A DNA stretch of 63,893 nucleotides, filler included, from Candidatus Desantisbacteria bacterium CG1_02_49_89 (GTDB taxonomy: Bacteria > Desantisbacteria > UBA1551): NCBI GenBank assembly GCA_001871075.1. It is 3 parts of 3 records of this genome, joined end to end, with 100 filler letters (N's around TTAATTAATTAA, not from the genome) between each part and the next. Parts side by side here need not be neighbours in the genome. Positions count along the whole stretch, not along the records: positions 31,589 to 58,336 come from MNUP01000010.1; 2 more parts are not named here. One strand, written 5' to 3'. The first letter of the stretch is position 1. Every line of letters starts with the position of its first letter. The translations under genes were made by a program, and so were the position numbers. This document shows, piece after piece, positions 5,469-60,853 of the stretch. A model generated the notes under the pieces. That model searched no databases. It was not told where the DNA came from and saw only the letters and a program-made list of their open reading frames with translations.

Positions 5469-8400
5469 ATGAAAAAATCTCTCTCTTTCTTTATTCTTGG
5501 GCTTTTACTTGTCACTTGTGACTTGTTACTTGTTACTGTAGTTCGCGCCGGCGGCCCCGGTTTTGCTTCCTTATATAAGGACCCAAAATAACAGAGGATA
5601 CTTCAACACCGACGGAACAGACTACGCCACTGTCACCGTCATCGTGATCTCGGAAACAACCACTAAGATATCCGGCCAATACGTAACCATTTATACGAAC
5701 CGCGGAGCCGCGTTCGATACGGGCTCAGGCGCTTCAAAGGTTACGAATGCCAACGGCGCGGCTACTTTTACGATCAGGTCCACGACCCCGGGAGAGGCCA
5801 ATTTTTACGCGGTGTGCATGGGAGAGACCCTGTACCCGAACCTGCTCAACAACGCGTCCATGGAGAGCGCGGGGACAGGCAACACCTACGCTCTTTACTG
5901 GACAGGCGTTGGCGCTGCTATACCGCCGTATAACTATACGCGGACAAGCACTGTAAGGTATGAAGGCATATACTCGGTCAGGCACGAGTCAGGCCGCGCA
6001 GGCAATCCTTACCAGGACGTTTCTATCATAGAGCGCAGTTCTTTATATGAACTTTCCGCGTACCAGTACGGACCGCTCAGGCAGCCCTACCTGGACCTTA
6101 ATAACACAGGTTACGACAAGAACATATACGCAGCCACCCCGAATACCTGGTGCTATTCCTCGGATATCTGGTCCAGCACAACAAATACAACGGCGAGGGT
6201 AAGGTTCCAGGTTGACGGATCGCCCGCGAACCTTGACTGGTGGGATAATATCCGGTTCCAGAGGATCCCGACAGTCACATTCATGAGGATAGTTGAGTTT
6301 CCCATAGCGATAGAAGCAGAGCATGACGATGTCTGGCATCTGGGCGGTGTTTCCATAGTAAACCCATGGGTAAACGGGTCTATCAGCGGAGTATTCTGGA
6401 GATTTAATAATAACAACGACAGGGTCCTTCTTTACGGCAGGGTGCCCCAGGTATGGAATGAATTTGAAACACAGATATTCAAGGTTTCATTCAGGGCTTT
6501 CGGTTTAAACGGGGGGGCCTGGCCTATCGCCGGCGTCGCGGTGGACGACGCGAACACAAAGAACATAAGCGTTGAGACTTCCGCGGTGCAGGTTTTTTAT
6601 TCCGGGACCTTTACCCTGGGCGTCGGCCTGCACAAGGTCGCGATCGTGCTCACAAACGGCGCCGCTTCAGACCTGTTCATTGACTGGTTCGGCATAGGGC
6701 CTGTGAAGAGCGCGGCGGATTCTCCGGCGCTTTCCAGGGAGGAGATCAAGGTCAGGCAGGACGATACCTACGTGATACCGATGTGGGAGTTCGACGAAGC
6801 CGGGAACACGGAAGGATGGGAGGGCTATAACGGCGCGAGCGTCACGGGAGTTTCAGGCGGAAGCCTGAACCTTACCACCACGAACACAGAGCCGGTGCTT
6901 TTATCCCCGCGCGTATTTGTGGACCAGAACCAGAACAAATACGTTTCCTTCAAGATGAAGGTTGACAGGGGAACAAGCGGAAAACTGCAGTGGGTCAGGC
7001 AGGATATCCCGGGGCCTTTGGGAGAAATGAGCTTTGACATAGAGGCGGACGGCCAGTTCCACGTTTACAACATTGACCTGAGTTCCGGTTCCAATTACGC
7101 GTTCTGGGGAAATACCTGGAACTACTATTTGACAGGGTTCATGTTGTTGCCGACTAACGCGTCCGGAGCAAGCGTCCAGATCGACTGGATAAGGATTTCG
7201 AACGTAAAGCAGGGCGAGGCAGAGATCAATATCACGTATTTCGGGATCGAGGAAGGCGGCAGGGCGGGAGAAAGCATACCCCTGTGGCTGAAAGTTGAGA
7301 ACGCGGGCGGGGAAGCGGCTGAATACGTTGCCGCGACTTTGAGCCTGCCCCCGGGCCTGGTGATAGCGAACGGCGGAAATACCTTCGGGGTCATAACCCT
7401 TTACAATAACACGACATTCGCCTGCACTGTCATAAGCTCAACCGCGATGTCCAGCACAGCGTACGTGACCGTGAGCGGGCGGAACTTCCTTTCCGAGACC
7501 GCTTCCTGTTCGATAACCATAACCGCAAAGCTGGCGTCAGACACCGACTACCCTCCTGTGCCCGAAACCGTGACCACCCCTTACGATGTCGGGGTTTATT
7601 ACTTCCCCGGATGGAAGCAGGGAGAGCACTGGGGCTGGGACGTGATAAGGCCCGAGTACCCGCAGAGAAAGCCGCTCCTGGGATGGTATAACGAGGGAGA
7701 ACCGCCCATCGCTGACTGGCATATTAAGTGGATGGCTGAGCACGGGGTGAAGTTCATTATCTACGACTGGTACATGTGGACTGACTATAATGTCGGCCTT
7801 GAACACGCGCTCAACGCCTACCTTGATTCCAGATACAGGTCCTATATCAAGTTTTGCCTGCTCTGGGCGAACCATTTTGCCGGCCACACGCGCGACCTGA
7901 TACTTTACACCACGCAGTACTGGATCGACCACTATTTCAACCAGCCCGAGCATTACACGATAGACAACAAGCCTGTGGTAATAATTTTCTCTCCTTTTCA
8001 GTTCAGCGAAGACCTTGGAAGCTACGCGGCTGTCGCAAGCGTGTTCGCCGAGATGAGGCAGATGTGCGTTGACGCGGGGTACGCGGGCCTTTATCTGATC
8101 GCCGGCAACGGCACCAGCCAGTCAGAGATCCAGGCGATCCAGACCATGGGTTATGACGCGTGCACCGGTTACAATTATGCCGGGTCAGGCATGAGCCCCG
8201 AGGAAGCAGTTCTGAACAGGTCCCCGTATTACAAGTGCATAAACGGGCACCGCGCGATCTGGGAGGCGATACAGGGATACGGATACCTTCCGTACATTGC
8301 GCTGACAGAGCCCGGGTGGGATAACGGCCCATGGGCCGGTTCTGCCGCTCTCGTGCGGACCAACAGGAACAAGGCTGATTACAAGTCCATGCTCATAAAT

Positions 8401-11400
8401 TCCAAAGCGTTCGCTGACAGCTACCCTATCCTCGGCAAAAAGATAGTCATATCCGAGTGCTGGAACGAGTTCGGGGAGGGCGCGGTTGTCGAGCCCTGCG
8501 TGGAATTCGGCTTCGACATGCTGGACGCGATCAGGGAAGTTTTTGTGGATACCAACCCGCACACGGACCTGGTTCCGGCTGACATAGGCCAGTCCGTGCC
8601 CCAGTGGTTCTTCAGCTACGGGGACGGCCCGTGGTACTCGGCGATGAGAAGGGCAGCGGTCCGGCTTTCCAGCGCCGCGGCAGGTGATCTGCCTGTTACG
8701 GATACGATAACTTTCACGACTTCGCGGTCTGACACGGTAACAAGACTGACGCTTTTTTACCCGAAAGGCTGCGTGCTTACAGGCGCAAGCCTTGTTTCAG
8801 TGAAGATCGACGCTATTACCGCGGGCACGATCTCGGTAAGCACTGAGACCATAACGTTCATCGCTTCAGCGCCTGATTCGGTAAGCGCCGGGACCGGGTG
8901 CACTATTGTTATTTCCGGACTGCAGAACCCCATTAAAACAGGAGGGTATGAAGTTGTGGTTACCACTTATGATTCGAAGGCCCAGCCGGTTGACGGCTTC
9001 ACTCCCGCGACATTCACGATAACAGCCGCTCCGTTCTCTCCAAGCTCTTCCTGGCTTTTCCTTTCAAGGTCGGTTTCGGCTGACAGGACGGCTAAATGCA
9101 CGATAACCGTTGTAGTGACAGACCAGTTCAGGAACCCGATCCCCGGTAAAACCGTCCTGATAACTTCAAGCAGGGGAGCGGGTATTGATACCATAACCCA
9201 GCCTTTGTCCGTAACCGACGCAAGCGGCATGTGCACGGGTTATCTGGTTTCTTCACAGCCCGGGAAGGACACAGTAACAGCGTCCGTTAACGGGGAGATG
9301 GGCACAATACAGAACGTTGTTTTCAGGGACATATCTTTCGGCATCTGGGATTTTGAGGACACGAAAAATTATACGGCCTATGATTATTCCCAGAGCCACA
9401 ACAACGGCATTATATACGGCAACACCGCGGAAACCATCGGTTACCGGGGCGCCGCGAAATATTTTGACGGGAACGCGGACTATATAACAGTTCCTGACAA
9501 CGATTCCCTGGACCCGTTCGAGGAAATAACGGTTGAGCTGTGGTATATGACCGGCGTTACCCAGACCGACAAGTGGATGTTTAACAAGGTGCCAGGCTCA
9601 GGCAATATGGGATACAGGCTCGGGATCTCAAGCGCAAACGTCGGATGGCAGGTTGCGGGCGCATCCGCCTGGAGCTATCACCTTTACGATCCGTCTCCGG
9701 CTCCGCTGAACGCCTGGACGCATGTTGCAGCGACCTATGAAGGCAATACAATGCTGCTCTACGTGAACGGCGTAAAGGTCAGTTCGCTTTCAAGGCCTGA
9801 ATACGGGATATATCCGTCCAGCATTCCTTTATACCTGGGAACATGGGCGCCGGGTAACGCATTCTACACAGGATGCCTTGACGAAATAAGGTTCTACAAC
9901 AAGGCGCTGACAGCCGACGAGATACTGCTCAGCTATCAGGGAAAGGCAAAACCGGTCATTTTCACCGGCGTTGAATCAAAGATAAAGATAACATCCCCGC
10001 CCAGGTCGGTGAAGCAGGGCAATATTTCGGATGTAATACTGTTCGAGGTCCAGGACAACATAGGGCAGAAGGTGAGTTATTTTACCAATACCGTCACACT
10101 CTCCGTTTCCTCGTCCACCGGAAGGTTCTCCCAGGACGGTTCAAGCTGGAGTTCCTCGAATACTTCGGTCATCTACGCGAATGAAGGTTCCGGGTATTTC
10201 TACTTCCGGGACACAAGCGCGGGCAGCCCCGCTGTCACGGTCTCAAGGTCCGGGCTTTCGCCCGACACGCAGGTTGAAAGCGTCAGCGCCGCATCAGTTT
10301 CAGAGACCCTGTCCTTCCTCAGGCTTAACGATGCAAAGATACCTGCCAACGGCACAACGGTCAGCACTATAACGATCTATGTAAAGGACATAGCGGGGTC
10401 CGCGTTATACGGAAGGCAGGTCACGGTTTACACAAGCCGCGGCCCTGTTATTGACACGGTAACACAGCCGTCCCTGACCAATGCGTCAGGCATATGCTAT
10501 GCGGCGATAAGATCGTCAACCGCAGGCCAGGATACGATAACCGCGAGATGCGAAGGCGTGACTATTACTGAAAATATCCTTAACAACCCGTCTTTTGAGG
10601 ACGGGACATCGGCACCAAGCAGCTGGGCGCTGAACATTTTATCAGGCGCATCGTGGGGATGGGACACAACAACGGTTTACAGCGGCGCGAGGAGCGTGCG
10701 CATTTCCGAGACTGCTACAGCCCAGGACAATTACGCGGAGGCAAACTGGGCCGGAACAACATACAACAACAGGTGGGACATAGACCCCGGATCTTCGTTC
10801 ACCGTGTCGCAATACCTGAGAACAGACCTGGCCTCGGATTACGCAGGCATGCGGATCGTATGGTGGAACGGGGGGACATACGCGGGCGAGGTGAACGCCG
10901 ACACCAGGACAGGGGTAAATCCCTGGACCCTGCTGCAAAAAACAGTTACCGCGCCCTCGAACGCGAACGGGCTGATGTTCCGCTGCGACAACAAAGGGGT
11001 GGGCACTGCGTGGTTTGACGCGGTCCGGGTTAAAAGGACCCCGACCATGGAATTTCTTGCCGCCGAGAAACTCGCAATAATCACTCCGGTCCGCGCGACC
11101 ATCGCCAATTCGGCTTCCGAGTCGATCTGCATCCAGGCGCAGTGGGGCACAGGGACAAAAGCGGGTTCATACAGCGGGTTCTGCGCTCTTTCTTCCTCGT
11201 CAGGCCTGGGGAAATTCAGCGTTTCAAAATACGCGCCCGCGAACAGCTGGACTTCCGCGATCACGGTAAAGATAATAAGCGGAGAGACCTTTGTGTACTA
11301 CAGGGACACGCTTAAAGGTTCGCCCGCGATATACGTTACGAGCACGGAGCTTTCAGGCACAAACCAGCCCGGCCATTCCGTAGGCGTCGGTCCGTTCTCG

Positions 11401-14400
11401 GAGACAAGGTCTTACGTGGTGATGCCGAGAACAGGGTACGCGAACGGCACCCAGTATACGGTGAGCGTTTACGTGACCGATTACTGGAGGAACCCGCGGT
11501 CCGGGGAGAGCGTGGCCATTACAACGTCCCGAAAGGGAACAGCCGAGAGCGGGTATGACACTGTGCAGCAGCCCGCGACAAAGACGTTCGATAACGGCAA
11601 ATGCACGGGAAAAATATGGTCCACACTGGTCGGCATAGACACGGTAACCGCGTATGTATCGGGGCAGCCCTTAAAAAGGATCACGAATACGATCTTCTCC
11701 GACCTGGGCGGGGGCGCGTGGAACTTTGACGAGGGCACAGGTTCTTCCGCGGCTGACGTTACCGGGAACGCGAACAACGGAACTTTCTACAATTCCCTGT
11801 GGGAGGACGGGGTTATCGGCAAGGCAGCGCGCACGGTTGACGGTTCAAGATATGTTTCCGTGCCTGACGACAGCACGCTTGATTTTTCAAAGGCCCTGAC
11901 AATGGAGGTGTGGGCCAAGATATACGACGGGAACGGCGGGCAGACCATAATGAGGAAAGAGCTCGCGTATTATTTGCGCAGGGACGAGATCGCGGAAGGC
12001 CCTGACTTCACCGCTTTTGTGTATACGACCGGGTGGGAACCAAGGGTGCCCAGCAACTTCATGCCGGATTCAGGCACTAACGCGTCATGGTACCACGTAA
12101 CTGCTACCTATGATAACGACACTCCGGCAAACCAGCTTAAGATATACGTCAACGGCGTGCTGCAGAACCAGATATCCAAGTCGGGAAACGTGAACATCAC
12201 CTCCAATGAGCTCTTTATGGGGATGAGCGGCTGCATGGACGAGGCGCGCGTCTACGGCGCGGCGCTGACCCCGGAGGAGATCTACGCGAGCTACACGGGG
12301 GCTTCCAAACCTATAACATTCTCGCTTCCCGCAAAACTGACGATCACCACTCCGCAGAGGGAGGTGAAACAGAACAATCCCTCGGATTACATCACGGTTG
12401 AGGCGCAGGACGACACCGGGAACATTGTAGCCGTATTCAATGAAAGCATCACGCTTGCCTGTTCTTCCACGACAGGAAGGTTCTCGCTTGACAGGGTCAG
12501 CTGGTCCGCTTCAAACAACACATTTATATACCTCGTGAACGGCACAAGGGATTTTTATTTCAAGGACACTGTTATAAACAGCCCGGTCATCACGGTTTCG
12601 CGTTCCGGCCTGCAATTCGATACTCAGGTGGTGATCGTTACCCAGTCATCCGTGTCCGGAACGCTCTCCTATATCCGCGTGGATGTCAACAACGTGAAGA
12701 TCCCAAGGGACGGCGTAACCCTTTGTACCTTTACCATTTCCGTCAGGGACATGGACGGCGGGACCCCGCTCTCTGGCAAACAGGTTACGGTCTACACCGC
12801 GCGCGGCCTTGGCATAGACACGGTCACGCAGCCGCAGCTCACTGATCTTAACGGGTTATGCACTGCCGCCGTCGTTTCCACGACCGCCGGCGGCGATACA
12901 ATATTCGCGGTGTGCGACGGGGTAACGATCACTGAGAACATAATCAACAATATGTCTTTTGAACAGGGCACGGGGGCATATCCTGACGGGTGGGGCGTTA
13001 ACGCGAATACCTGGACATGGGTCACCGATGTGGTTTACAGCGGCGCGAAAGCAATGAGAAATTTTTCCGACGCTGTAACCGACCAGTTTGTTGAGGCGCA
13101 GTGGACAGGGACTCCTTATTTTAACCGATGGCCCGTGCATCCGAGCACTGTTTTTGTTGCCAATCAGTGGACAAGATCCGATCTTTCAAGCGGGGACGCG
13201 CGTATAAGGATAATATGGTTTAACGGCGGGTCTGTGATAGGAGAGGTAGCCGCGGCTCAGATATGGGGCACCCAGCCCTGGACACTGCTTTCCGGGACCC
13301 TGACTTCCCCTGCAAATGCGGACGGGCTTATGTACCGCGCTCATAACGCCGGCCTGGGGACAGCGTGGTTTGACTGCATACGCCTGCAAAGATACCCGAT
13401 GGTGGAATTCACGGCTGCGGGAAAGCTTGCCATAATAACTCAGCCCAGGCAGGTTAATGCGGGCAGCGTTTCCGAATCAATAGTGATACAGGCGCAGTAT
13501 CTGGGTGGCACAAAAGACTCGTCTTACAACGGGACCTGCACCCTTGTGTCTTCGTCAGGCATGGGATTTTTCAGTACCAGCTCAACAGGATGGGGAGAAA
13601 CATCCACGATCATACTGGACATTGTGAACGGCGAAACGTATTTCTATTACAGGGACACCAAAGCCGGTTCACCGGTCATCACTGTCACAAGTCCCGACCT
13701 TAACTCCTGCACACAGGCGCAGTCCGTGTACCCGGGCCAGTTCTCCGAGACAGCTTCGTTTATAATGCTGCCCAGGGAAGCGATCGCCGTGGACACATCC
13801 GTGTGCACGGTCACCATCTACGTTATGGACTGTTACAGGAACACGATCAGCGGACAGCAGATAATAATAACCACAAGCAGGATGGGCACACCGCAGGGGA
13901 TCTATGACACAATAACGCAGCCGTCCTCAGTATCCGATACATTTGGGACCTGCACCGGAACGCTTGTCTCGACCCTTTCCGGTTACGACACCGTGACCGC
14001 TTATATACCGGGCTACAGTTCAAGGCGCGTTAAAAATAATATATTCAGGGACATAGCCACGTGGGTTACGAATTTCGACGAGGGGTCGGGGAGCTCCGCG
14101 AACAGCATTTCGCCGTACGGCGGCACAGCTTCCGTTGCGGGCGGCGCGCAGTGGACCCCTGACTGTAAATTCGGTTCGTCTATCTATTTTAACGGTTCTT
14201 CCGCTTACGCGCAGTCAGCTGATCAGGACATATACGACACCACGCCCATGTCCTTTGAAATGTGGATAAAGACCGACGTAGTGCAGGGCGACAAGCAGCT
14301 CATAAACCGCATTACGAGCGGAGATCAAGGGTGGAGGACCACTGTTTCGGGCCAGAATGTCAATTTTCAGATGCCTGTGACCAGCTGGTCGCATTCGCTC

Positions 14401-17400
14401 GGAAGCTCCATAACTTTCAATTACGGTGAATGGTCCCACGTGTGCGGCACATACGACGGTGCGAATATGTGCCTTTACATAAACGGCAGCCCTGCCGGGC
14501 AGCTCGCCAGGACAGGCGGGTGCACGAATTCGGGACAGCAGCTGAACATTGCCTGCTACAGCCCGGGCGGAGCCGCGTTCAACGGCTGGATTGACGAGAT
14601 CAGGATCTACCGCGATGCGCTGACCGCTGTTGAGGCGCAGCAGAGCTGGATGGGCGAGGCAAAACCAATTTATTTTGTCAGCTATGCCTCAAAACTGGAA
14701 TTCATAACTCCTCCCAGGACGACCAGCGCGTGCGTAAAGTCAGAGTCGATAGCCGTGGAGGCGCAGGACGGTTCCGGCAATAAAACTAATTTTTCCGAGA
14801 TGATAGACATAGCGTCTTCTTCTTCATCCGGAAAGTTCTCTCCTGACGGGGTCAGCTGGAGCAGTTCGAATAACACCTCGATAATGATGGCGGACGGCTC
14901 AATGTTTTTCTACTACATTGACACGACCGCAGGCAACCCTGTAATTACCGTTTCGCGCGTTGAACTTGCTTCTGACACGCAGGTTGAGACGATCACGCTG
15001 TCTCCGGCTGTCGCTGAAACGAACTCCTACCTGCGAACGAACACCGCCACCATCCCCGCGAACGGCGCCGCGCCCTGCTCTGTGAACATAGTGATCAAGG
15101 ACATTTACGGCAACGGGCTGTTCGGCAAGCAGGCCACGGTCTATACGTCGAGGGGATCTTCGTTTGACACGATAACCCAGCCGTCCCTGACGGATATTAA
15201 CGGCTTATGCACAGCGCTTATAGTTTCCTGCACACAGGGCAGCGATACGATCACAGCGTTGTGCGACGGAGTTACGATCACCGAAAACATAGCGAACAAC
15301 CCGTCTATGGAGAACGGATCAGGAGATCCTTCTGACTGGTACTACAATACCGCTTCAGGAGTTTTCTCCTGGGTGGCGGACGACGCTGCTTCAGGGATAA
15401 GGTCCATAAGGCATTACTGCCCCACCAATGCGGATAATTTCGCTTATATAAACTGGCCGGGAGCCCCGATATGGGGCAGGTACCCGGTAACCCCCAATAC
15501 TCCTTACATCTTCAGCCAGTATTCGAAAATAAGTTCTGCAAGCGATACCATGGTCATCAGGCTTATCTGGTGGAACAATTCAAATTATATCACCGAGGGT
15601 TATTACGCTAGCCTCGGGAACGGACCAGCCGGATGGACAAAGATATCCGGCACAACTAACGTTCCAGCCGGCGCGAACATGGTTGAATACAGGGCAATGC
15701 ACAACGGCACTGAAACTGCCTGGTTTGACTGTGTGCGCATCCAGAGGGTTCCCACAATTGATTTCTACGGGGCCACACAGATCGCTTTCGCCACGCCGGC
15801 CAGGGCTTTTTCAGCTGGCAGCGTGTCAGATTCCATCTGCATCCAGGCGCAGTTCCCTGACGGAACAAAAGACTTAAGCTACAACGGCGCCTGTTCCCTT
15901 GTTTCGACTTCCGGACTCGGAACTATTTCGGATACGAACGCGGGCGGCGGCACATGGTATTCCGGAGCTGTCACGCTGAACCTGAAGAACGGAGAAACCG
16001 TTGTTTTTTACAGGGACATAAAAGCAGGTTCGCCGATCCTGGCCCTTTCAGCTGCAGGGCTTACAGGCAATACCCAGGCGCAGTCTGTTTCTGCGCTTGG
16101 TTTTTCCGAGACAGTCTCTTACCTTGTCATAAAACAGAGGCTGATACCTGCGGATAATTCATCTGCCTGCACAATTACGGTTACGGTTACCGATTACTAC
16201 CGCAACCCGCTTTCAGGCCAGGCAGTGATAATTACGACAAGCAGGAAGGGCACAGGGCTGGACGCTTATGACTTCATAACCCAGCCCGGCATTACCGATC
16301 CAAGCGGCGTGTGCACAGGCGCAGTGGTTTCCAGTTACGGCGGCCTGGATACGATCACAGCGTATATTGAGGGGAATTCCGTAAAACGCGTGGAAAATAC
16401 CGTGCTGGCGGACGGCCTTATAGGGATGTGGAACTTTGACGATGGATCAGGAGATGTTGCTTACGACCTTTCGATCAACAATAACACCGGCACGATAACC
16501 AGCCCTTCCTGGACAAACGGGTTGCTGGGCCCCTGCCTTTCGGTTAACGGCACTACCGGATATGTAAGCGTGGAGAATAACGCGACGCTGAACCCCGGAG
16601 CCGCGATCTCAGTGGAAGCGTGGGTAAAAATGAACGCGAATGACAACTATGCCGAAATCGTGCGTAAAGAACCCTGCTATTTTATGCGCAAGACCAGCAT
16701 AGGTGAAGGCAACAATTTCAATTTCTTTATCTGCACCGGCGGCGGCTGGGAACCCAGGGCTGCTTCAAGCCTTATTCCGGATTCAGGGCCCAATGCTCCC
16801 TGGTACCATATTGTCGGGACTTATGACAGCAGTATTGGCGGGAATAACAACAAATTATATATTGACGGAGCCGTTGACGGTTCATCCGCGAAAACAGGTC
16901 CTATTGATTCAAGCGCGAATCCTCTGAGGATCGGAGGCCTGGGAGCGATCTGGAACGGTGTGATGGACGAAGTGAGGATGTATAGCCGCGCGCTTCCCCT
17001 GGACGAGATCAAGGCGGGTTATGAGCGCAAGCCCAAGCCCGTAACGTTTACCGGTATGAATTTAAAGATCCTGACGCCGCAAAGGACCGCGGCGCAGGGC
17101 GCAGCCACTGATTCAATAACGGTAGAGGTCCAGGGTCTGGGCGGAGGCAGGGATGTAAGCTTCTATGATACGGTCATCCTCTCAAGCAGTTCGCCGGGCG
17201 GCAGCTTCTCAATAGACAATATTGTATGGGCTGATACCACGAACATATACCTTTCATCCGGCTACGGGGTATTCTACTACAAAGACACCAATATAGGCAA
17301 TCCCGTGATAACCGCTTATCGCGAATCGCTTATCGCAGATACTCAAGGCGAAACAATAACAGCAGGGGGAGCGGGATACTTCAGTTTCATCAGCCCAGAA

Positions 17401-18369
17401 TTCAGAATACGGGCTGCTGATACATCACCGCTCGTAACAGCGGTCGCTTATGATTCAGGCGGGAACACTGACGTTTCGTTCAGCAGCACGGTAAGTTTAT
17501 TCACAAGCTCCAGTTCCGGGTCCTTCTCAGTGTCAACAACTCCATGGGCAGATACAAGCACGATCACGTTCCTTAATGGCTTCGGCTATTTCTACTACCG
17601 CGACAACGCTGTCGGTAATCCTGTGCTATCAGCTATGAGCTATGAGCTATCAGCTGACACACAGGTAGAAACAATAACTATACGGTACCTGCGATTCTCA
17701 AACACAACACCGTTCACCATAACAAGCATAAGTACCGCTCCGGTGTTCTTAAAAGCAGTAGATGGTTCTGGGAATACAGCGGTTCTCTTTAATGATACGG
17801 TCCAACTGCTTACCACATCAACAAAAGGTTATTTCTCCGTGTCAGGCACTACCTGGGTAAACACAAGCATCGTGTACCTCGTATCCGGCGGAAAGACCGT
17901 ATACTACAAAGACAAGATAGGCGGTAACCCTGTCATAACCGTGACCAGGACAGATTCCTGGACATGGACAGACACTCAACAGGAGACGGTTACAAAGCCA
18001 ACCGTTCTAACTTCTAAGGTTCAAATGAACGTTCGTTCAGGAGAAACAGGTTCAATGCCTATGAAATTCTGGGTTTCTGACACTGTTGAATACACTGTTT
18101 ACATTTCAAACACAGGCACAGAAACCGCGACAAACAACCTTATCGTTGACACAAGGTCTTTTGATACCAGCGTCAATAATCCTGTTGACTACATTTATAT
18201 GGACACTTCAGGTTTTGCTGACACCTGGGCATACACAACAGACCTTGTTTCCTGGACAACAGGCAATCCTGCTTCAGGCACTTCCAATGTCAAAGGCCTG
18301 CGCTGGAGAATAGATAGTCTTGGCATAAATCAAACCAAAGCCATAAGGTTCAGAGTAAGAGTGAAATAA
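5469..18369 (+). CDS. Giant (~4,300 aa) secreted modular protein: GH99-like/WbsX-type catalytic domain, 4 LamG domains, 4 CBM4/9-like domains, many Ig/invasin-like repeats, DUF11-like C-terminus. Apparent +1 frameshift at ~5571.
   Basis: ORF 5563-18369. GH99-like motifs VGVYYFPGW, PLLGWY, FCLLWANH, PGWDN, WNEFGEG (~7580-8545). LamG motifs W.FDEG...W.HV..TYD...LYVNG...DE.R.Y..AL. NPSFE..WFD.V modules. The signal peptide MKKSLSFFILGLL.. starts at 5469 in another frame. Confidence 0.8.
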
Positions 18370-28322: not shown

Positions 28323-28505
28323 TTACTTTAATTATGAATTATGAGTTATGAATTATGAGTGAAGGAATCACAACGATTACAAACTGCAATTTTAAAGTTA
28401 TTCCAAAAGATCTCTACGAAATAGATACTAATTTTAAAATAAACATCCTCACAGTTGATTCATAATTCATCATTCATAACTCATAATTAATTCTGGGAGG
28501 GAAAT

Positions 28506-29354
28506 ATGGATACTCGGGCTCCCGCTGTGGCGGGGCAGTTTTATGACGGGACCGCGGAAGGGCTGAAGTTACAGCTGGATAAATGTTTCATGCACAGAGT
28601 AGGGGTGAAGAAGATCCCTGTGCTGAACCCGGACGGCGAAAGGAAGATCCTGGGTATCGTAAGCCCTCACGCCGGATACACGTATTCCGGCCCTGTTGCA
28701 GGCCACGGTTTCAGCGCCCTTGCTCAGGATGGTCCCTTAGGGACCATCATAATGATCGGGCCCAACCATCACGGCGTGGGCAAGCCGGCGGCTGTTTCAA
28801 TGGCTGATTCCTGGGAGACTCCTTTGGGAACAGTCCGGATAGACAAGGAAACAGGCGAAGCCCTGAGGGGATCCTGCCGTTTTCTTGAGGCTGACGAAAG
28901 CGCGCACAGGTTCGAGCATTCCCTTGAGGTCCAGATCCCGTTCCTGCAGTATATCTACGGGGACGCCTTTTCCATAGTGCCGGTGGCCATGATGAGCCAG
29001 GATATAAAACTCTGCAAAGAGCTGGGGAAGGGCATAGCGAAGGCGGCAGGCAAAAAAAACACGGTTATAATAGCGAGCTCTGACTTTACTCATTATGAAA
29101 TAAATGAAGTAGCGGAGCGCAAAGACGGGCAGGCAATAGAGCGCATACTTAAATTCGACATCGAGGGGCTTTTTGCAGTTATAAAGGAGATGGATATTAC
29201 CATGTGCGGGCCGGGCCCGGTCGCGGCGATGCTTTACGCCGCGAAAGAAATGGGCGCGGCAGACGCGAAACTGCTCAAATACGCCACTTCCGGGGACGTA
29301 AGCGGGGATAAATCCGCGGTTGTCGGCTACGCCTCCATCATTGTGAAAAAATAA
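28506..29354 (+). CDS. amrB: AmmeMemoRadiSam system protein B (MEMO1 family)
   Basis: RAPAVAGQFY, PHAGYTYSG, GPNH, EHSLEVQIPFLQ, SSDFTHY, MCGPGP, VVGYAS. Confidence 0.93.
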   Translation: MDTRAPAVAGQFYDGTAEGLKLQLDKCFMHRVGVKKIPVLNPDGERKILGIVSPHAGYTYSGPVAGHGFSALAQDGPLGTIIMIGPNHHGVGKPAAVSMADSWETPLGTVRIDKETGEALRGSCRFLEADESAHRFEHSLEVQIPFLQYIYGDAFSIVPVAMMSQDIKLCKELGKGIAKAAGKKNTVIIASSDFTHYEINEVAERKDGQAIERILKFDIEGLFAVIKEMDITMCGPGPVAAMLYAAKEMGAADAKLLKYATSGDVSGDKSAVVGYASIIVKK

Positions 29355-29578
29355 TTATGAATTATGAGTTATGAGTTATGAATCAACGGCATGGAATTAA
29401 TTGTCCCAAAGGGACTCCGTATCCCCGACGGTATGTCGGGGCATCGGAGTAACTCAGAGCTTTAGCTCTGATTCATAACTTTGCCCTTCGGGCAACATTC
29501 TCGTGCGGTTTTGCAGAATGTTTTCGAATTCCATAATTCATAATTCATAATTCATAACTCATAATTAAGGAGTTGGAT

Positions 29579-32327: not shown

Positions 32328-32429
32328 TGTATTATTACCTCCTTGATTATGATTACAGTGATTATTAACTAATGATTACGGTGATATTAAAATAATCACT
32401 GAAATCATCTTTAAAAAATCACTGTAATC

Positions 32430-37472: not shown

Positions 37473-37516
37473 TATGACTCCTCGATTACGGTGATTTTTA
37501 AAAATGATTACAGTGA

Positions 37517-37960
37517 TTATTTTAAATAAATTTTCAAATCGCTGAATCCGCCTTTTGCCGCACCTTCGTATGATACGGGCGCAGGATTATTTTTGTTGTC
37601 CCTGTCTGTTTCATAAGTTCTGGCAACGGATTCTCCCCTTTTTATCTCGCACTTCGCATCTATTGATACTCTGCCGCGCGGGAACGAGGGGGTTATCCTC
37701 GCGTTGTAAAATTTTATTTCCCTGTCACCTTCCATGCCTTTGAACACAACTTCCTCGATGATCTCCCTTCCTGTACCGCCGGCGGACGCTTCCAGGTCTT
37801 TCCAGATAAGTTTGACAGTAAGAACGGGTATTGAGCCTGCGGGGCATTCTTCAGGCAGGCATACCTTCCCGCCTGAGCTTATTGTCTGCGCCTGCTGGGC
37901 CCCGGCTGCGACAGAAAATACCATTAGAAACATTACAGACATTAAAAACATTTTATTCAT
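37517..37960 (-). CDS. Hypothetical secreted protein
   Basis: Signal peptide ending AGA, GGAGG RBS. Confidence 0.65.
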
Positions 37961-44134: not shown

Positions 44135-44160
44135 TTTTCCTCCTATCTTTTTTAAATAAA

Positions 44161-44263
44161 ATTATGAGTTACGAGTTATGAATTATGAATCAACTGCATG
44201 GTATTAAATTTAAATAGAACTCCTTGTTTTTGACTCATAATTCATCATTCATAATTCATAATT
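44161..44263. repeat. TTATGA(A/G) heptamer-armed fold-back element. Copies at 28331-28488, 29355-29567, 46942-47036, 52131-52225; partial at 60685 and 62044.
   Basis: Tandem TTATGAA/G arm, conserved AT-rich core, inverted (T/C)TCATAA arm. Confidence 0.85.
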
Positions 44264-45209
44264 AATCTTTGATATGCAAAACATAGTCTTTTAAAAGATC
44301 CTGGGCGCTGTTGCTGACCCCGGATCTGTCAAGGTCATATAAAGCTTTGCGCAGATATTCCGTGCCGATCGCTTCTGAATGGCGCAACGCGCCTGTTTTT
44401 TCTATGAGAACGCGCATACCGGACGCTCCTTTTTTCCCCGCGCCAAGGGCAAGGACGAAAGGAAGCGTCTTCTTGTTCTTTTTAAGGTCGCTCTGTATAT
44501 GAAGGGAACGGCTGCCTTTATCGCCGAAGCCCGAGATATCGTTAAAAATCTGGAACGCCATTCCCGCGTTAGCCCCGAAACTTCTGTAGCATTTAATTAT
44601 CCCGCAGTTTTGGGTTGAAACAAGAGCGCCTGAAACAGGGGCGGATTCAATAAGCGCGGCTGTTTTCTCCCTTATCATCCGCAGGTATTCGCCTATTCCT
44701 ACCCGGGCTCTTTTTTCAAAGGACAAATCGAGCATCTGGCCTTCACACATACGGTAGCAGGCAGAATTAACCGCAGAGGATACAGAGTTGATAACAGCCG
44801 GCTTCAGGCCTGAATCAAAAAGACCTGAAAGGGCAAGGCCTACCAGCGCATGCATCGCGTCCCCGGCGTTGATAGCCTGGTTCGCGCCCCACTTCCTCCA
44901 GACCGTCTGCCTGCCGCGCCTGAATTCGTCCCCGTCCTGTATGTCGTCGTGGATAAGCGAAAAATTATGTATCAGTTCTATCGCGACTGCCGCGGGAAGC
45001 GCTTTTTTATAGCTGCCGCTGATCGCTTTTGCGGTTAGCAGACACAGAACGGGTCTGAATCTTTTACCCTGAGCTCCAGTGGATTGGTTTTTCAGCAAAC
45101 CCAACTGGTATCCAAGCATCTCCCCGGCAATAGGGATATCGCAGAATTTCTTCAGCGTTATGGTAATTTCCCTGTTTATCTCATCCCTTAATTCATTTAT
45201 AAGTTTCAT
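44262..45209 (-). CDS. Polyprenyl diphosphate synthase family protein
   Basis: GKRFRP, LIHDDIQDGDEFRRG, GQMLD, KTAAL, K.TLP. The second Asp-rich motif is degenerate. Confidence 0.9.
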   Translation of the reverse strand: MKLINELRDEINREITITLKKFCDIPIAGEMLGYQLGLLKNQSTGAQGKRFRPVLCLLTAKAISGSYKKALPAAVAIELIHNFSLIHDDIQDGDEFRRGRQTVWRKWGANQAINAGDAMHALVGLALSGLFDSGLKPAVINSVSSAVNSACYRMCEGQMLDLSFEKRARVGIGEYLRMIREKTAALIESAPVSGALVSTQNCGIIKCYRSFGANAGMAFQIFNDISGFGDKGSRSLHIQSDLKKNKKTLPFVLALGAGKKGASGMRVLIEKTGALRHSEAIGTEYLRKALYDLDRSGVSNSAQDLLKDYVLHIKD

Positions 45210-46892: not shown

Positions 46893-47029
46893 TTATTTCC
46901 TCCTTAGTCCGTTGGATTAATAATCGTCGGAAAAGTTATAAATTATGAGTTATGAATTATGAATTAACTTCATGGTATTAAATTTAAATAAAGATCCTTG
47001 TTTTTGACTCATAACTCATCATTCATAAT

Positions 47030-47893
47030 TCATAATTGGGGTTGAATCGATGAGTGTATGTCCGGTTCCCTGACATAAACCGGCTTTAATCTAAAAAGAT
47101 CGTCGCCCTTCCTGTTCTTCTGCAATTTCCTGTAACCTTCAAAAGCAATAGTGCCTGCTTTCGGGCGCCACAGTTCTTCAGGCGCGAATATTGCCTTACC
47201 GCCGAGTTTTTCTTTTATCGCGTCCCCGTATATCCTTACTGCATTGCCGATAAATACCGTCGGACGTCGGACGTCGGACGTCGTAAGTAAATTCAGTAAA
47301 TCCTCAATGCTTAATACTGAATCTTTCATTACTTTTCTTAACTTTGAGCTTCTGTCCTGTATACTTATACACTTATCCACTTGTCCACTTATCAACTTGT
47401 TCCCTTGTAAACTTGTAAACTTGTAAACTTGTAAACTGTATAAGGAAGTATAGACCTGCTGTTTCCTCGCGTCCGTTATCACGCATATTTTAAATCCCCC
47501 GCCATCCCCCCTTTCATAAAGGGGGGTAAGAGGGGATTTTTCATTTTTTTTGCTGGATACCGCATTTAAAGCAATCACATCCAGCGTTCCCACGGCTACT
47601 ATCGGAACATCCAACGCCTGCGCGAGCGCTTTCGCTGAAGCCACTCCAACGCGCAGGCCCGTGTAACTGCCCGGGCCAATGGATACGGCAACAGCATTGA
47701 TGTCCCGGATCTTCAGCTTGTTTTTTTTCAGGATCCTGTCAATGAAGAATACCAGCTTGGAGGAATGCTCCCGGGGAGTTCTTTCGCTTGTTTCATCAAG
47801 TAATCTACCGCGGTCAGCCAGGCCAACGCTGCAGTATTCCCCGCTTGTATCGATCCCAAGAACTACGAAGCATTTTTTGACGCTGATTTTCAC
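47030..47893 (-). CDS. tsaB: tRNA t6A biosynthesis protein TsaB, with three repeat-derived inserts
   Basis: LGIDTS, HS..L, GPGSYTGLRVG, DARK..VY, P.YVR. Start uncertain. Confidence 0.93.
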   Translation of the reverse strand: MKISVKKCFVVLGIDTSGEYCSVGLADRGRLLDETSERTPREHSSKLVFFIDRILKKNKLKIRDINAVAVSIGPGSYTGLRVGVASAKALAQALDVPIVAVGTLDVIALNAVSSKKNEKSPLTPLYERGDGGGFKICVITDARKQQVYTSLYSLQVYKFTSLQGNKLISGQVDKCISIQDRSSKLRKVMKDSVLSIEDLLNLLTTSDVRRPTVFIGNAVRIYGDAIKEKLGGKAIFAPEELWRPKAGTIAFEGYRKLQKNRKGDDLFRLKPVYVREPDIHSSIQPQL

Positions 47894-48549: not shown

Positions 48550-49338
48550 TTAGCCTGCCGCTGCGCGCTTCCCTTCTTCCGATAAAAGGAAACAAGGGTC
48601 TTCTTCAAGCTTTCTAAGGGTAAAATCCATCATTTCTCTTGCCTTGATAAGCTTTAAAGATGCGTTACCGGACAGGCCGGCTTTCATTATTCCCCGGCTG
48701 AGCAACAACGGTTCCATCTTCGGAAAATCCCGCACGATCCCGTAACGGTGTATTTTTGTCCTGGCAATGATCTTCCTGCCGCTTCTATCTATTATAACGG
48801 CATCCACAGGTTCCGGCTGTAACTGGTAATCAACCCCGGCAAGCTCTTCCGCGCAGTGGAACGTGGTAAAACAAGCCAGCCCGATGCCTATCATAAGCAC
48901 GTAACCGTTATCCGCTGAACATAATTTGTCGTAAGGGCTGCCCTTGCCGCACGGCGTGCTGCAGAGCTGGTGGCCTTCTGTCAGAAATTCCGCCTGCCTG
49001 CCTATTGCCGCGACAGAATGCGTGGGGCCCAGGCTCCTGACCGCGTTTTTCCTTTTCCTGAAGGTCTCGGGGATCGTCCCTGTCCAGCAGGGAGTATTCA
49101 GAACATCGAACACAGGCGGGCTGGCAGCTGTCAGCTGCGCAGAACCTGTCAGGGTCGGCACCAAAACGGTTCCGCTCGCGCCAACCGTTTCTATTAAAGA
49201 GTCTATGACGGCATCCGCCCCGCCTTCCACCCAGCCGAAGCTTTTCAAAGAACTGTGGACGAGAACATTTGATCCTTCTTTTAGCCCGGTATTTTCAACA
49301 AGATCCCTTTTTATTTCCTGCTTTGTTATTATATTCAT
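48550..49338 (-). CDS. AAC(3)/Antibiotic_NAT family N-acetyltransferase
   Basis: VLVHSSL..FG.V.GGA, GT.LVPT, G.IPE.FR, RS..PTHS, T.FH.AE. Confidence 0.88.
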   Translation of the reverse strand: MNIITKQEIKRDLVENTGLKEGSNVLVHSSLKSFGWVEGGADAVIDSLIETVGASGTVLVPTLTGSAQLTAASPPVFDVLNTPCWTGTIPETFRKRKNAVRSLGPTHSVAAIGRQAEFLTEGHQLCSTPCGKGSPYDKLCSADNGYVLMIGIGLACFTTFHCAEELAGVDYQLQPEPVDAVIIDRSGRKIIARTKIHRYGIVRDFPKMEPLLLSRGIMKAGLSGNASLKLIKAREMMDFTLRKLEEDPCFLLSEEGKRAAAG

Positions 49339-49421
49339 AACGGGATTACGGTGATTATTAACTACTGATTACGGTGATTTTAGAATAGATTACGGTGATT
49401 ATAAATAAAAAATTGCGGTGA

Positions 49422-50567
49422 TTAAAAGTGCGAGAAGCCTAAATTTTTAGCGGTTCTCTTTCTGCCCTTATTGTCAATGATAAAAAGACTTTTGTCTTTT
49501 ATGATCTCGCCGACTGCCGTAACAGGAGTGCCGGTCAATCTTGGCACCAATGCCAGGACCTTCTTTAATTTAGCCGGCGGGACAGTGAAAACAAGCTCGT
49601 AATCCTCACCGCCTGTCAGTACTAACTTACGACTTACGACGTACGACGTACGACGGATAAGTTGCTCTGAAACAGGGATCATGTCTTCATGGATCTTGGC
49701 GCCTGTGCCGGATTCCTGGCAGATGAACCCAACCGAAGCAAGAAGCCCGTCGCTTGAATCTATCATTGCGGTTGCCAGCTTGTTCTTAGCGATTATCCCC
49801 GCCTCTTTTACTCTTGGGCTTGGCATTAAATGCCTTTTTATAAGATATTCGTGGTTTTGGCGATGCACGATGCACGATGCACGATGAACGGTTTTTTTAA
49901 GGAGCTCAAAGCCAGCCGCGGAGTCGCCGCAGGACCCTGTTACGCAGATCATATCTCCGGGCCTGGCACCCTTGCGCAGAAGAAGGTTCTTCTTTTCAAC
50001 TTCGCCGATCACGGTCGTATCTATTATTAAAGAATCCGATTTGCTGATATCACCGCCGATAACCTGAACGCCTTTACTGCAATGGGACAGTCCCTCCCGA
50101 TGACCATCGGGATGGGACAGTCCCTGACCTGCGGCGTTCATCCCGCGGTATAGATCATCTATGAATCCAACGTCTTCTTTACCTGTCAATCCCAGCGTTA
50201 CAAGCGCGTATTTTGGCTTCCCGCCCATTGAAGCGATGTCGCTCATGTTTACAGCCATCACCTTCCATCCTAACATGAACCCGTACGACGTACGACCCGC
50301 AAGGGCGACGTACGACGGCAAACGGGCAAGGAAATGCACGCCCTCAATAAGGATATCGGTAGTCCAAAGTAAACATTTACCGCGGGAAATTGGAATAACG
50401 GCAGTATCATCGCCAATTCCGATCAAACCACGTGTAACGTGCCCGCTCCGATTTATATCGGGGCGAGGTCTCGCCCCGACTGACGTCGGGGCGGATAACG
50501 TGTTACGTGTAACGCGGCTACGGATGCGGTCAATGAGCCCAAATTCCCCTAAATCCTTGATTTTCAT
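49422..50567 (-). CDS. thiL: Thiamine-monophosphate kinase, with five repeat-derived inserts
   Basis: GEFGLI, GIGDD.A, TTD.L.EGVHF, N.SDIA.MGG.P, IGGD, DSSDGL, GGEDYEL.FT. Confidence 0.96.
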   Translation of the reverse strand: MKIKDLGEFGLIDRIRSRVTRNTLSAPTSVGARPRPDINRSGHVTRGLIGIGDDTAVIPISRGKCLLWTTDILIEGVHFLARLPSYVALAGRTSYGFMLGWKVMAVNMSDIASMGGKPKYALVTLGLTGKEDVGFIDDLYRGMNAAGQGLSHPDGHREGLSHCSKGVQVIGGDISKSDSLIIDTTVIGEVEKKNLLLRKGARPGDMICVTGSCGDSAAGFELLKKTVHRASCIVHRQNHEYLIKRHLMPSPRVKEAGIIAKNKLATAMIDSSDGLLASVGFICQESGTGAKIHEDMIPVSEQLIRRTSYVVSRKLVLTGGEDYELVFTVPPAKLKKVLALVPRLTGTPVTAVGEIIKDKSLFIIDNKGRKRTAKNLGFSHF

Positions 50568-50635
50568 ACGAGTTTAACCACAGGTTAACACAGTTTAACA
50601 CAGTTTAGATACATCAGGGCTGAAGCCCTGAGTTA

Positions 50636-50689
50636 TCCGCCCCGATGTCAGTCGGGGCGAGACCTCGCCCCGATATAAATCGGGGCGGG
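50636..50689 (+). mobile_element. Double-hairpin micro-element, family A. Other copies: 30117-30168, 42022-42072, 48023-48075, 50442-50495, 56973-57024, 60766-60812.
   Basis: Consensus TCCGCCC-x-GGGCGAGACYTCGCCC-y-GGGCGRG. Empty target visible at 18845-18925 (reverse). Confidence 0.8.
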
Positions 50690-50748
50690 CAATAAAATTC
50701 CTTGTTGTTGCGTTGACACGTTGATACGTTGACACGCTGACACTGCAT

Positions 50749-52112: not shown

Positions 52113-52231
52113 CTTTTCTCCAGAAAATCAATTATGAATTATGAATGCTGAGTTATGAATCAACAGCAAGGATTTTAATTTAAATTAACTCCTTGATTCA
52201 TAATTCATAACTCATAATTCATAACTATCTG

Positions 52232-60666: not shown

Positions 60667-60853
60667 AATTTCTCCATATATTCAATTATGAATTATGAGT
60701 TATGAATGAAGGAATCAGGGCTCCCTCCCAACAAGATTGGCGGGTCTTCGAGAAGCCCTGAGTTATCCGCCCCGATGTCCATCGGGGCGAGACCTCGCCC
60801 CAAAGGGGCGGGCAATAGATTCCTTGCAGTTGCGTTGATACATTGACACGCAT

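Follow-up and report, generated by a model that had tools for sequence, protein, structure and literature searches.

Five repeat-derived segments in the thiL gene of a Candidatus Desantisbacteria genome rich in heptamer arrays and small hairpin elements

The DNA analysed here (the window, 63,893 nt, filler included) consists of three contigs of Candidatus Desantisbacteria bacterium CG1_02_49_89 (GCA_001871075.1, hereafter G000) joined by N runs. The second of these contigs carries thiL (49422..50567, minus strand; G000:C22:17834-18979), a coding sequence (CDS) of 381 aa in the list of open reading frames (ORFs), with an ATG start and an unbroken frame. An earlier note on this DNA had proposed that the gene contains five separate in-frame insertions derived from repeats. 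All five repeat-derived segments are present, at coordinates identical to those first given or within 2 nt of them, and the peptide of segment 1 is as the note gave it; their summed length is about 226 of the 1146 nt of thiL, i.e. about 20% repeat DNA.

By its sequence and predicted fold the ORF is an intact ThiL, and it is the only one found in the genome. It scored 265 bits with TIGR01379, the NCBIfam thiL equivalog (cut-off 184.15), it contains the Pfam domains AIRS (PF00586, 71.4 bits) and AIRS_C (PF02769, 46.9 bits), and its best sequence matches in solved structures are ThiL proteins. Alignment and structure prediction, the check proposed in the earlier note, also yielded a ThiL fold: the AlphaFold (AF2) model, built with an alignment of 116 sequences, has a confident core, with a mean predicted local distance difference test score (pLDDT) of 86.7 and a predicted template modelling score (pTM) of 0.86, and its top Foldseek match is the ThiL of Aquifex aeolicus (3c9u_A; E 1.7e-30, template modelling score 0.91 by target). 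All 36 of the columns invariant in the 116 ThiLs are retained, including the GIGDD loop and the GGEDYE motif, and none of them falls inside a segment, as expected from the claim that all ThiL motifs survive. This conservation suggests that thiL is under selection. A single thiL was recovered from the genome (93.5% complete), and no other copy turned up. Two weaker matches in the thiL search were set aside, namely an ORF that we read as HypE-like (C-terminal PRIC) and another that we read as PurM-like. In the same 93.5%-complete genome, ThiC was found (609 bits) and a search for a thiamine pyrophosphokinase (TPK) domain found none. An Rfam scan of the window returned two tRNAs only, with no family for any of the repeats and no thiamine pyrophosphate (TPP) riboswitch.

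The five segments, all read on the minus strand, differ in construction. Segment 1 (50430..50514, about aa 18-46) is a 31-nt heptamer array (~4.4 units) split into halves of 12 nt (50430-50441) and 19 nt (50496-50514) by a 54-nt element (50442..50495), a GC-rich double hairpin of 18 codons that we refer to as family A. This element interrupts one heptamer unit exactly, and the flanks rejoin in perfect heptamer phase with no target duplication. Segment 2 (50281..50318) is also a heptamer array, with a 10-nt mini-hairpin (50296-50305) that has the identical 3 nt on either side. Segment 3 (50082..50124) consists of a 13-nt direct repeat (50082-50094 and 50112-50124) around a 17-nt hairpin (50095-50111), and yields a duplicated GLSH; a near-identical copy of it, from a different locus, was seen in contigs of the sequencing runs. 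Segments 4 (49861..49890) and 5 (49626..49655, with the array at 49628-49655) comprise 4.3 and 4.0 heptamers, respectively, each with 95% matches, and encode VHRASCIVHR (aa 227-236) and RRTSYVVSRK (aa 305-314).

Tandem Repeats Finder (TRF) detected three period-7 arrays in the CDS alone, more than chance gave: a single array of this kind appeared in 11 of 500 codon shuffles, and no shuffle contained two or more. When folded as single-stranded DNA, the element of segment 1 (-22.4 kcal/mol, z -5.3) and segment 3 (-18.1 kcal/mol, z -6.3) were not equalled by any of 200 shuffles. Segment 2 folded weakly better than its shuffles (z -2.3, 5/200), and the folding of segments 4 and 5 was not beyond chance (segment 4, z -0.6). 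Counts of perfect hairpins in thiL genes did not separate the clade of this ThiL, defined below, from the controls (4 and 6 versus 0-3, the count for P0006 being 1).

The lengths of the five sites were taken between invariant anchor residues in the alignment of 116 ThiLs, with the 110 sequences outside the clade as reference. The clade consists of six ThiLs: that of G000, that of the closest genome, from the same order (G001, 415 aa, 61% identical; the protein is named Candidatus Desantisbacteria at NCBI) and four further metagenome proteins of 366-387 aa. In G000, site 1 has 37 aa (reference median 16, range 15-17), site 2 has 20 aa (median 10, all 10) and site 3 has 28 aa (median 13, all 13). 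Segments 1-3 are thus clear net insertions, of 21, 10 and 15 aa, into loops that are elsewhere fixed or nearly fixed in length. At site 4, the 29 aa of G000 lie within the normal range (median 25, range 19-41, with at least 29 aa in 21 of the 110 sequences), a gain of 4 aa over the median in a linker that is variable across ThiLs. Site 5 has 20 aa (median 22, range 12-28, at least 20 aa in 105/110), 2 aa below the median, and the ten heptamer-coded codons appear to replace native sequence there with no added length. Four control stretches between the sites (41, 47, 48 and 33 aa) were constant across the six clade members. The designation as insertions therefore holds for segments 1-3 but not for segment 4, which is of normal length, nor for segment 5, which brings no gain.

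The earlier note had further suggested that the segments occupy insertion-tolerant surface loops. In the AF2 model, segments 1-4 do lie between predicted secondary-structure elements and have reduced pLDDT (below 50 at aa 26-46 and at aa 161-163; block mean 72 for site 2 and 75 for site 4); segment 5, however, is modelled inside a confident helix (H309-318, pLDDT 90-92). The published structures of the ThiL proteins of Aquifex aeolicus and Acinetobacter baumannii share with this ThiL the two-domain fold and the IGDD loop, and this ThiL is a net 48 residues longer. As described for these structures, the linker that joins helix alpha-1 to the IGDD loop is a plastic stretch, with a different (domain-swapped) arrangement in the two proteins (PMC6416309), and it is in this linker that insert 1 is located.

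The prediction that relatives would carry different inserts at the same loops was borne out by the five other members of the clade. Site 2 is expanded in 6/6 clade ThiLs, and at sites 1, 3 and 5 the members have from none to 27 extra residues; at site 4, G000 is shorter than its five relatives (37-40 aa). There is no insert sequence common to the six proteins, and all six are intact. The thiL of G001 has inserts at the same five places, drawn from its own hairpin family (16 copies in G001, 2 in G000), and the core of family A, with 79 loci in G000, has none in G001 (87% complete). The direct-repeat family found at site 3 in G000 occurs at site 5 in G001. The sites were thus occupied independently, by families specific to each lineage.

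Variation at site 2 was also seen within the 90% protein cluster of this ThiL (11 members). One member, P0127 (379 aa), differs at site 2, and no simple 6-nt deletion of the window CDS gives its peptide (0 found). The P0127 peptide is reproduced exactly when four bases in continuation of the heptamer period are put in place of the 10-nt hairpin, and we infer from the protein that P0127 represents a hairpin-free array allele of site 2. No array length variants were seen in the contigs of four runs, contigs being a form of the data from which rare variants are dropped.

The element of segment 1 belongs to a large family. Three nhmmer rounds with the 54-nt sequence gave 260 hits, which merged into 140 loci; most of these loci match on both strands because the element is palindromic. 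Family A is modular, with a conserved palindromic core that links two hairpins whose stems and loops are variable. Forty of the loci lie in proxy genes, defined as the longest non-overlapping ORFs of at least 90 aa (1974 ORFs, covering 87% of the genome), many of them near ORF ends and about 14 clearly mid-ORF. Within ORFs the element is read in recurrent frames, such as SAPxxxGARPRPxxxGG, and the thiL frame (SAP...GARPRP...GG) is shared by about ten other ORFs, in one of which the heptamer-coded residues beside it are the same as well. At 49 of 129 loci (38%), the flanks of family A join as one 7-10-nt periodic array at a threshold of 0.80, as compared with 131/2580 shuffled partners (5%) and 19/2000 random intergenic places (1%); at a threshold of 0.90, the counts were 15 loci, 29 shuffled partners and 1 random intergenic place. 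A large minority of family A, not all of it, is therefore in phase inside arrays, as in thiL. This nesting inside tandem arrays, like the genome-wide extent of the repeats, was missed by the earlier note.

The best match in the genome to the in-gene copy is a sister copy close by (50633..50690). The two are 137 nt apart and inverted relative to each other, with 96.6% identity over 58 nt and both loops in common; the sister copy lies upstream of the thiL start codon (50567), at a distance of 66 nt. The other two hairpin-bearing segments likewise have counterparts elsewhere. The mini-hairpin of segment 2 recurs at nine other loci (10 including thiL), each time within this heptamer family and at an identical phase, and the 11-nt core of the segment 3 direct repeat occurs 23 times in the genome and forms pairs around hairpins at nine loci.

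It may be added that 65 nt of upstream DNA, the start codon of thiL and its first 24 codons are enclosed between the two members of this inverted pair of family A copies (50633-50690 and 50442-50495).

Tandem arrays of short units are abundant throughout the 2.48 Mb of the genome. The merged TRF output comprised 1008 period-7 arrays, in which 187 canonical heptamer units were distinguished, together with 503, 378 and 298 arrays of periods 8, 9 and 10, respectively. The density of period-7 rows was 42 per 100 kb, versus 7.9 in G001 and 3.0 and 4.8 in two unrelated genomes, the densities of the comparison genomes being taken from samples of 63-100 kb. The thiL heptamers belong to abundant families, of 41, 28 and 21 arrays. 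At least one array of period 7, 8, 9, 10 or 14 is present in 454/1974 proxy genes, and the four arrays of thiL, in 382 aa, are exceeded in only five ORFs, each of more than 850 aa. Only 245 of the 1008 period-7 arrays (24%) lie inside proxy ORFs, though these cover 87% of the genome. In a tally of arrays of at least 3 copies, from which 181 edge cases were omitted, units with stops on both strands were found in 6/162 ORF arrays versus 156/460 intergenic arrays, and the rarity of such units inside ORFs is the trace that a selection filter would be expected to leave. In the window, 12 of 47 proxy genes bear arrays; Pfam domains were detected in all 10 that were scanned of the 11 other than thiL (the remaining one is a 4269-aa ORF), and the array-bearing ORFs include a TPP enzyme, a formyltransferase, a TsaD-family protein and a class I tRNA synthetase.

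Several of these loci are worth describing in their own right. The TsaD-family ORF (47030-47893, minus strand; PF00814 at aa 38-258 of 287) has two arrays within its domain, one of 3.7 perfect heptamers (47258-47283) and the other an 86-nt array of 8-nt units (47358-47443), and is thus a second housekeeping gene with in-frame repeat DNA. The 4269-aa open frame (5563-18369, plus strand) has heptamer arrays near its 3' end, at 17313-17336 and 17625-17655. The commonest heptamer family (103 arrays), whose unit has stops on both strands in our reading, often occurs in intergenic spacers as two arrays of opposite orientation a few dozen bases apart; its sites in the window are 28330-28488, 29353-29566, 44160-44274, 46936-47037, 52130-52226 and 60684-60707.

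The genome has 10 Y1_Tnp (IS200/RAYT-like) transposase matches, of which nine score moderately and fall in open frames of 76-337 aa. A RAYT-type link with family A was rejected, as none of the 10 Y1 genes has a copy within 1.5 kb. One Y1 gene adjoins a 188-nt heptamer array, and others adjoin longer hairpin repeats. The junction of segment 1, clean and with no duplication, would suit single-strand transposition by enzymes of this type.

The surroundings of three of these Y1 genes may be of interest for the repeats of this genome in general. Two are paralogous Y1-transposase-like genes of 161 aa on one contig (G000:C23:1740-2418 and G000:C23:3766-4461); one of the pair is the gene next to the 188-nt heptamer array (~27 units), and the other adjoins a repeat of 60-nt period, the hairpin of which is also found beside many family A copies. 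The third, a 182-aa Y1-like gene (G000:C111:7463-8180), has arrays of a 27-28-nt hairpin repeat on both sides, a classic RAYT-like arrangement with a different repeat family.

We consider it probable that thiL has been hit repeatedly by small selfish repeats, and that only the in-frame, stop-free hits in permissive places have survived. The lineage would combine a high rate of array formation with a high rate of mini-element insertion, the incoming repeats being tandem arrays of 7-10-nt units and tiny GC-rich hairpins that nest in such arrays. Insertions that broke the frame, brought in a stop or disturbed the fold would have been purged by selection, and neutral or nearly neutral filler would have stayed, in four loops and one poorly conserved helix. 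The inserts would then be translated as filler in an enzyme that presumably remains active and still makes thiamine diphosphate. That the elements are mobile is suggested by several signs, namely the clean cut in a heptamer unit, the inverted copy 137 nt away and the hairpin-free allele of site 2. This interpretation agrees with most of what the earlier note had proposed, which was largely right and was overstated for two of the five segments.

The positions of the inserts could also have been fixed by targeting, with an existing array serving as a landing pad for more elements. Since many elements are nested in tandem arrays, their repeated appearance at the same sites may be due to targeting in addition to tolerance, and targeting would complement the survival of selfish repeats rather than replace it. 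The in-phase position of family A in arrays at 49/129 loci, well above both controls, favours such targeting, as do the mini-hairpin found at the same heptamer phase at 10 loci including thiL, the expansion of site 2 throughout the clade and the P0127 allele, which is consistent with it. However, 62% of the loci fail the periodicity test at 0.80, the thiL of G001 has inserts at the same five places in a genome with few heptamer arrays (7.9 per 100 kb), and no enzyme was linked to the elements; we regard targeting as possible but doubtful. The inserts might instead be useful, either as new protein surfaces or as DNA or RNA signals such as pause sites or the sites of a heptamer-reading protein. 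Retention of the site 2 extension in 6/6 clade members and the folding of segments 1 and 3, far better than that of their shuffles, would fit this, but the lack of any insert sequence conserved among orthologues, the mostly intergenic location of such sequences and the low AF2 confidence for inserts 1 and 3 make a function for the inserts unlikely.

Decay of thiL is less likely still. If thiamine diphosphate were taken up, or made by an unrecognised enzyme, the inserts could be early damage, and the ~20% of repeat DNA, the weak ThiE match (see below), the four truncated calls in the cluster and a genome 93.5% complete, in which a second route could be unassembled, would all accord with this. 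Nevertheless, 381 codons have remained open despite five non-triplet repeats, all 36 invariant residues are in place, ThiC is present and all six clade orthologues are intact. Removal or skipping of the inserts on the way to the mature protein, by RNA excision or translational bypass, is very improbable. No evidence for such removal was found, the stable hairpins of segments 1 and 3 having no more than a general likeness to bypass or processing signals; moreover, skipped elements need not be in frame or stop-free, yet all five are, stop-bearing units are depleted from ORF arrays genome-wide, and the Rfam matches in the window are limited to the two tRNAs. We attach the lowest probability, one close to nil, to an assembly artefact of a repeat-rich metagenome bin. 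Breaks of Logan contigs do coincide with repeats, but the identical gene is found on two metagenome contigs (27 kb and 93 kb), the metagenome scan otherwise returning distant relatives. Logan contigs from 4 runs carry thiL, with 0 differences over 49300-50477 in one contig, and segments 2-5 are contained unchanged in a contig of 1962 nt from another run.

Several observations weigh against the repeated insertion and survival of selfish repeats in thiL as we have set it out. Segment 5 has no added length and is predicted to be helical, so that simple insertion is insufficient there and a deletion or a replacement is needed. Sites 1-3 are nearly or wholly invariant in length in the 110 other ThiLs, and tolerance at these places is seen in this clade only. 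The ThiE match is weak (23.5 bits), leaving the pathway context incomplete. For four members of the 90% cluster, the called protein begins only at M98 or M104, immediately beyond site 2, and these starts could correspond to frameshifted alleles at site 2 or to contig breaks. Finally, proxy ORFs are not equivalent to real gene calls, and many of the element copies counted as in-ORF are close to ORF ends.

We also put forward, with considerable reserve, the more speculative proposal that Desantisbacteria possess an active machinery that builds arrays and drops hairpins into them, perhaps by means of one of the nine RAYT-like Y1 transposases. If this were true, the machinery would often act in coding regions, the loops of housekeeping enzymes would be rewritten from species to species within one order, each of the five thiL sites would be a recurrent landing pad, and heptamer arrays may be footprints or products of the machinery rather than of polymerase slippage.

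The thiL gene described here is a natural experiment on the load of foreign sequence that can be borne by a small essential enzyme. Three loops that are nearly or wholly fixed in length in 110 other ThiLs have been expanded by 10-21 residues, and the relatives use other sequences there. For annotation, this serves as a warning that long, oddly composed protein loops in such genomes are derived from repeats. Handles on the movement of elements of less than 60 nt are provided by the clean junctions in phase with the arrays, by the hairpin-free allele and by the number of Y1 transposase genes.

The DNA on either side of thiL is also repetitive. A 10-nt tandem array (50571..50607, 3.6 copies) lies just upstream of the start, and a 23-nt tandem repeat (49344..49424, 3.6 copies) occupies the downstream spacer and overlaps the stop codon. 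This 22-23-nt repeat, with a GATTAC(G/A)GTGATTA core, recurs between genes elsewhere in the window, with at least three spacers affected in all (49344-49424, 32349-32396 and 37484-37526). The next ORF downstream of thiL (48550-49338, minus strand) is of the aminoglycoside 3-N-acetyltransferase family (PF02522, 199.7 bits).

The repeats in thiL do not appear to be members of the repeat families with which they are compared below, the palindromic elements of Rickettsia, the nested arrays of cyanobacteria and the TAACTGA repeats, from which they are set apart by the descriptions of those families and by the host. Searches of the literature on heptanucleotide repeats in coding genes found nothing specific, and the titles and abstract openings of a part of the literature on Desantisbacteria included no work on repeats. 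Phase-variable contingency genes with simple sequence repeats resemble thiL in having a non-triplet repeat unit in the coding region, where the gain or loss of copies would alter the frame, but thiL is a housekeeping gene and the one variant seen keeps the frame. Points of resemblance to the REP/REPIN-RAYT systems are a paired GC-rich hairpin element in more than 100 copies and the 10 Y1_Tnp matches; in contrast to them, no family A copy lies within 1.5 kb of a Y1 gene (0/10), and 40 of the 140 loci are in proxy ORFs, so that the element is not strictly extragenic. In cyanobacteria, tandem heptamer arrays (short tandemly repeated repetitive sequences, STRR) reportedly carry nested small hairpin elements (small dispersed repeats, SDR), an arrangement said to have been described by Elhai et al. 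in 2008. Segments 1 and 2 and many family A loci, consisting of heptamers with nested in-phase hairpins, resemble that arrangement, but the host is not a cyanobacterium and about one quarter of the arrays are in ORFs, including those of conserved enzymes.

The TAACTGA heptamer direct repeats of Beggiatoaceae, cyanobacteria and Bacteroidetes are described as having one dominant unit and an almost exclusively intergenic location (MacGregor 2015, PMC4679880), and an earlier survey, as relayed there, had coding-region repeats usually with units in multiples of three. This genome is similar in the unusual abundance of heptamer direct repeats and differs in its 187 canonical units and in the 245/1008 arrays inside proxy ORFs. 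The palindromic elements of Rickettsia (RPE) are, in the account given in PMC10969869, palindromic repeats of ~150 bp found in frame in unrelated housekeeping genes and read as an extra peptide, with the fold apparently kept. Family A is like them in that at least 14 proxy ORFs have a mid-ORF copy, its peptide frames recur and it takes up 18 codons in thiL. The elements described here are, however, of only 10-54 nt, they are nested in tandem arrays, five segments are present in a single enzyme of 381 aa, and the host belongs to a different phylum. Two phenomena known separately, in-frame palindromes of the Rickettsia type and nested heptamer arrays of the cyanobacterial type, are thus combined at high density in a barely studied candidate phylum.

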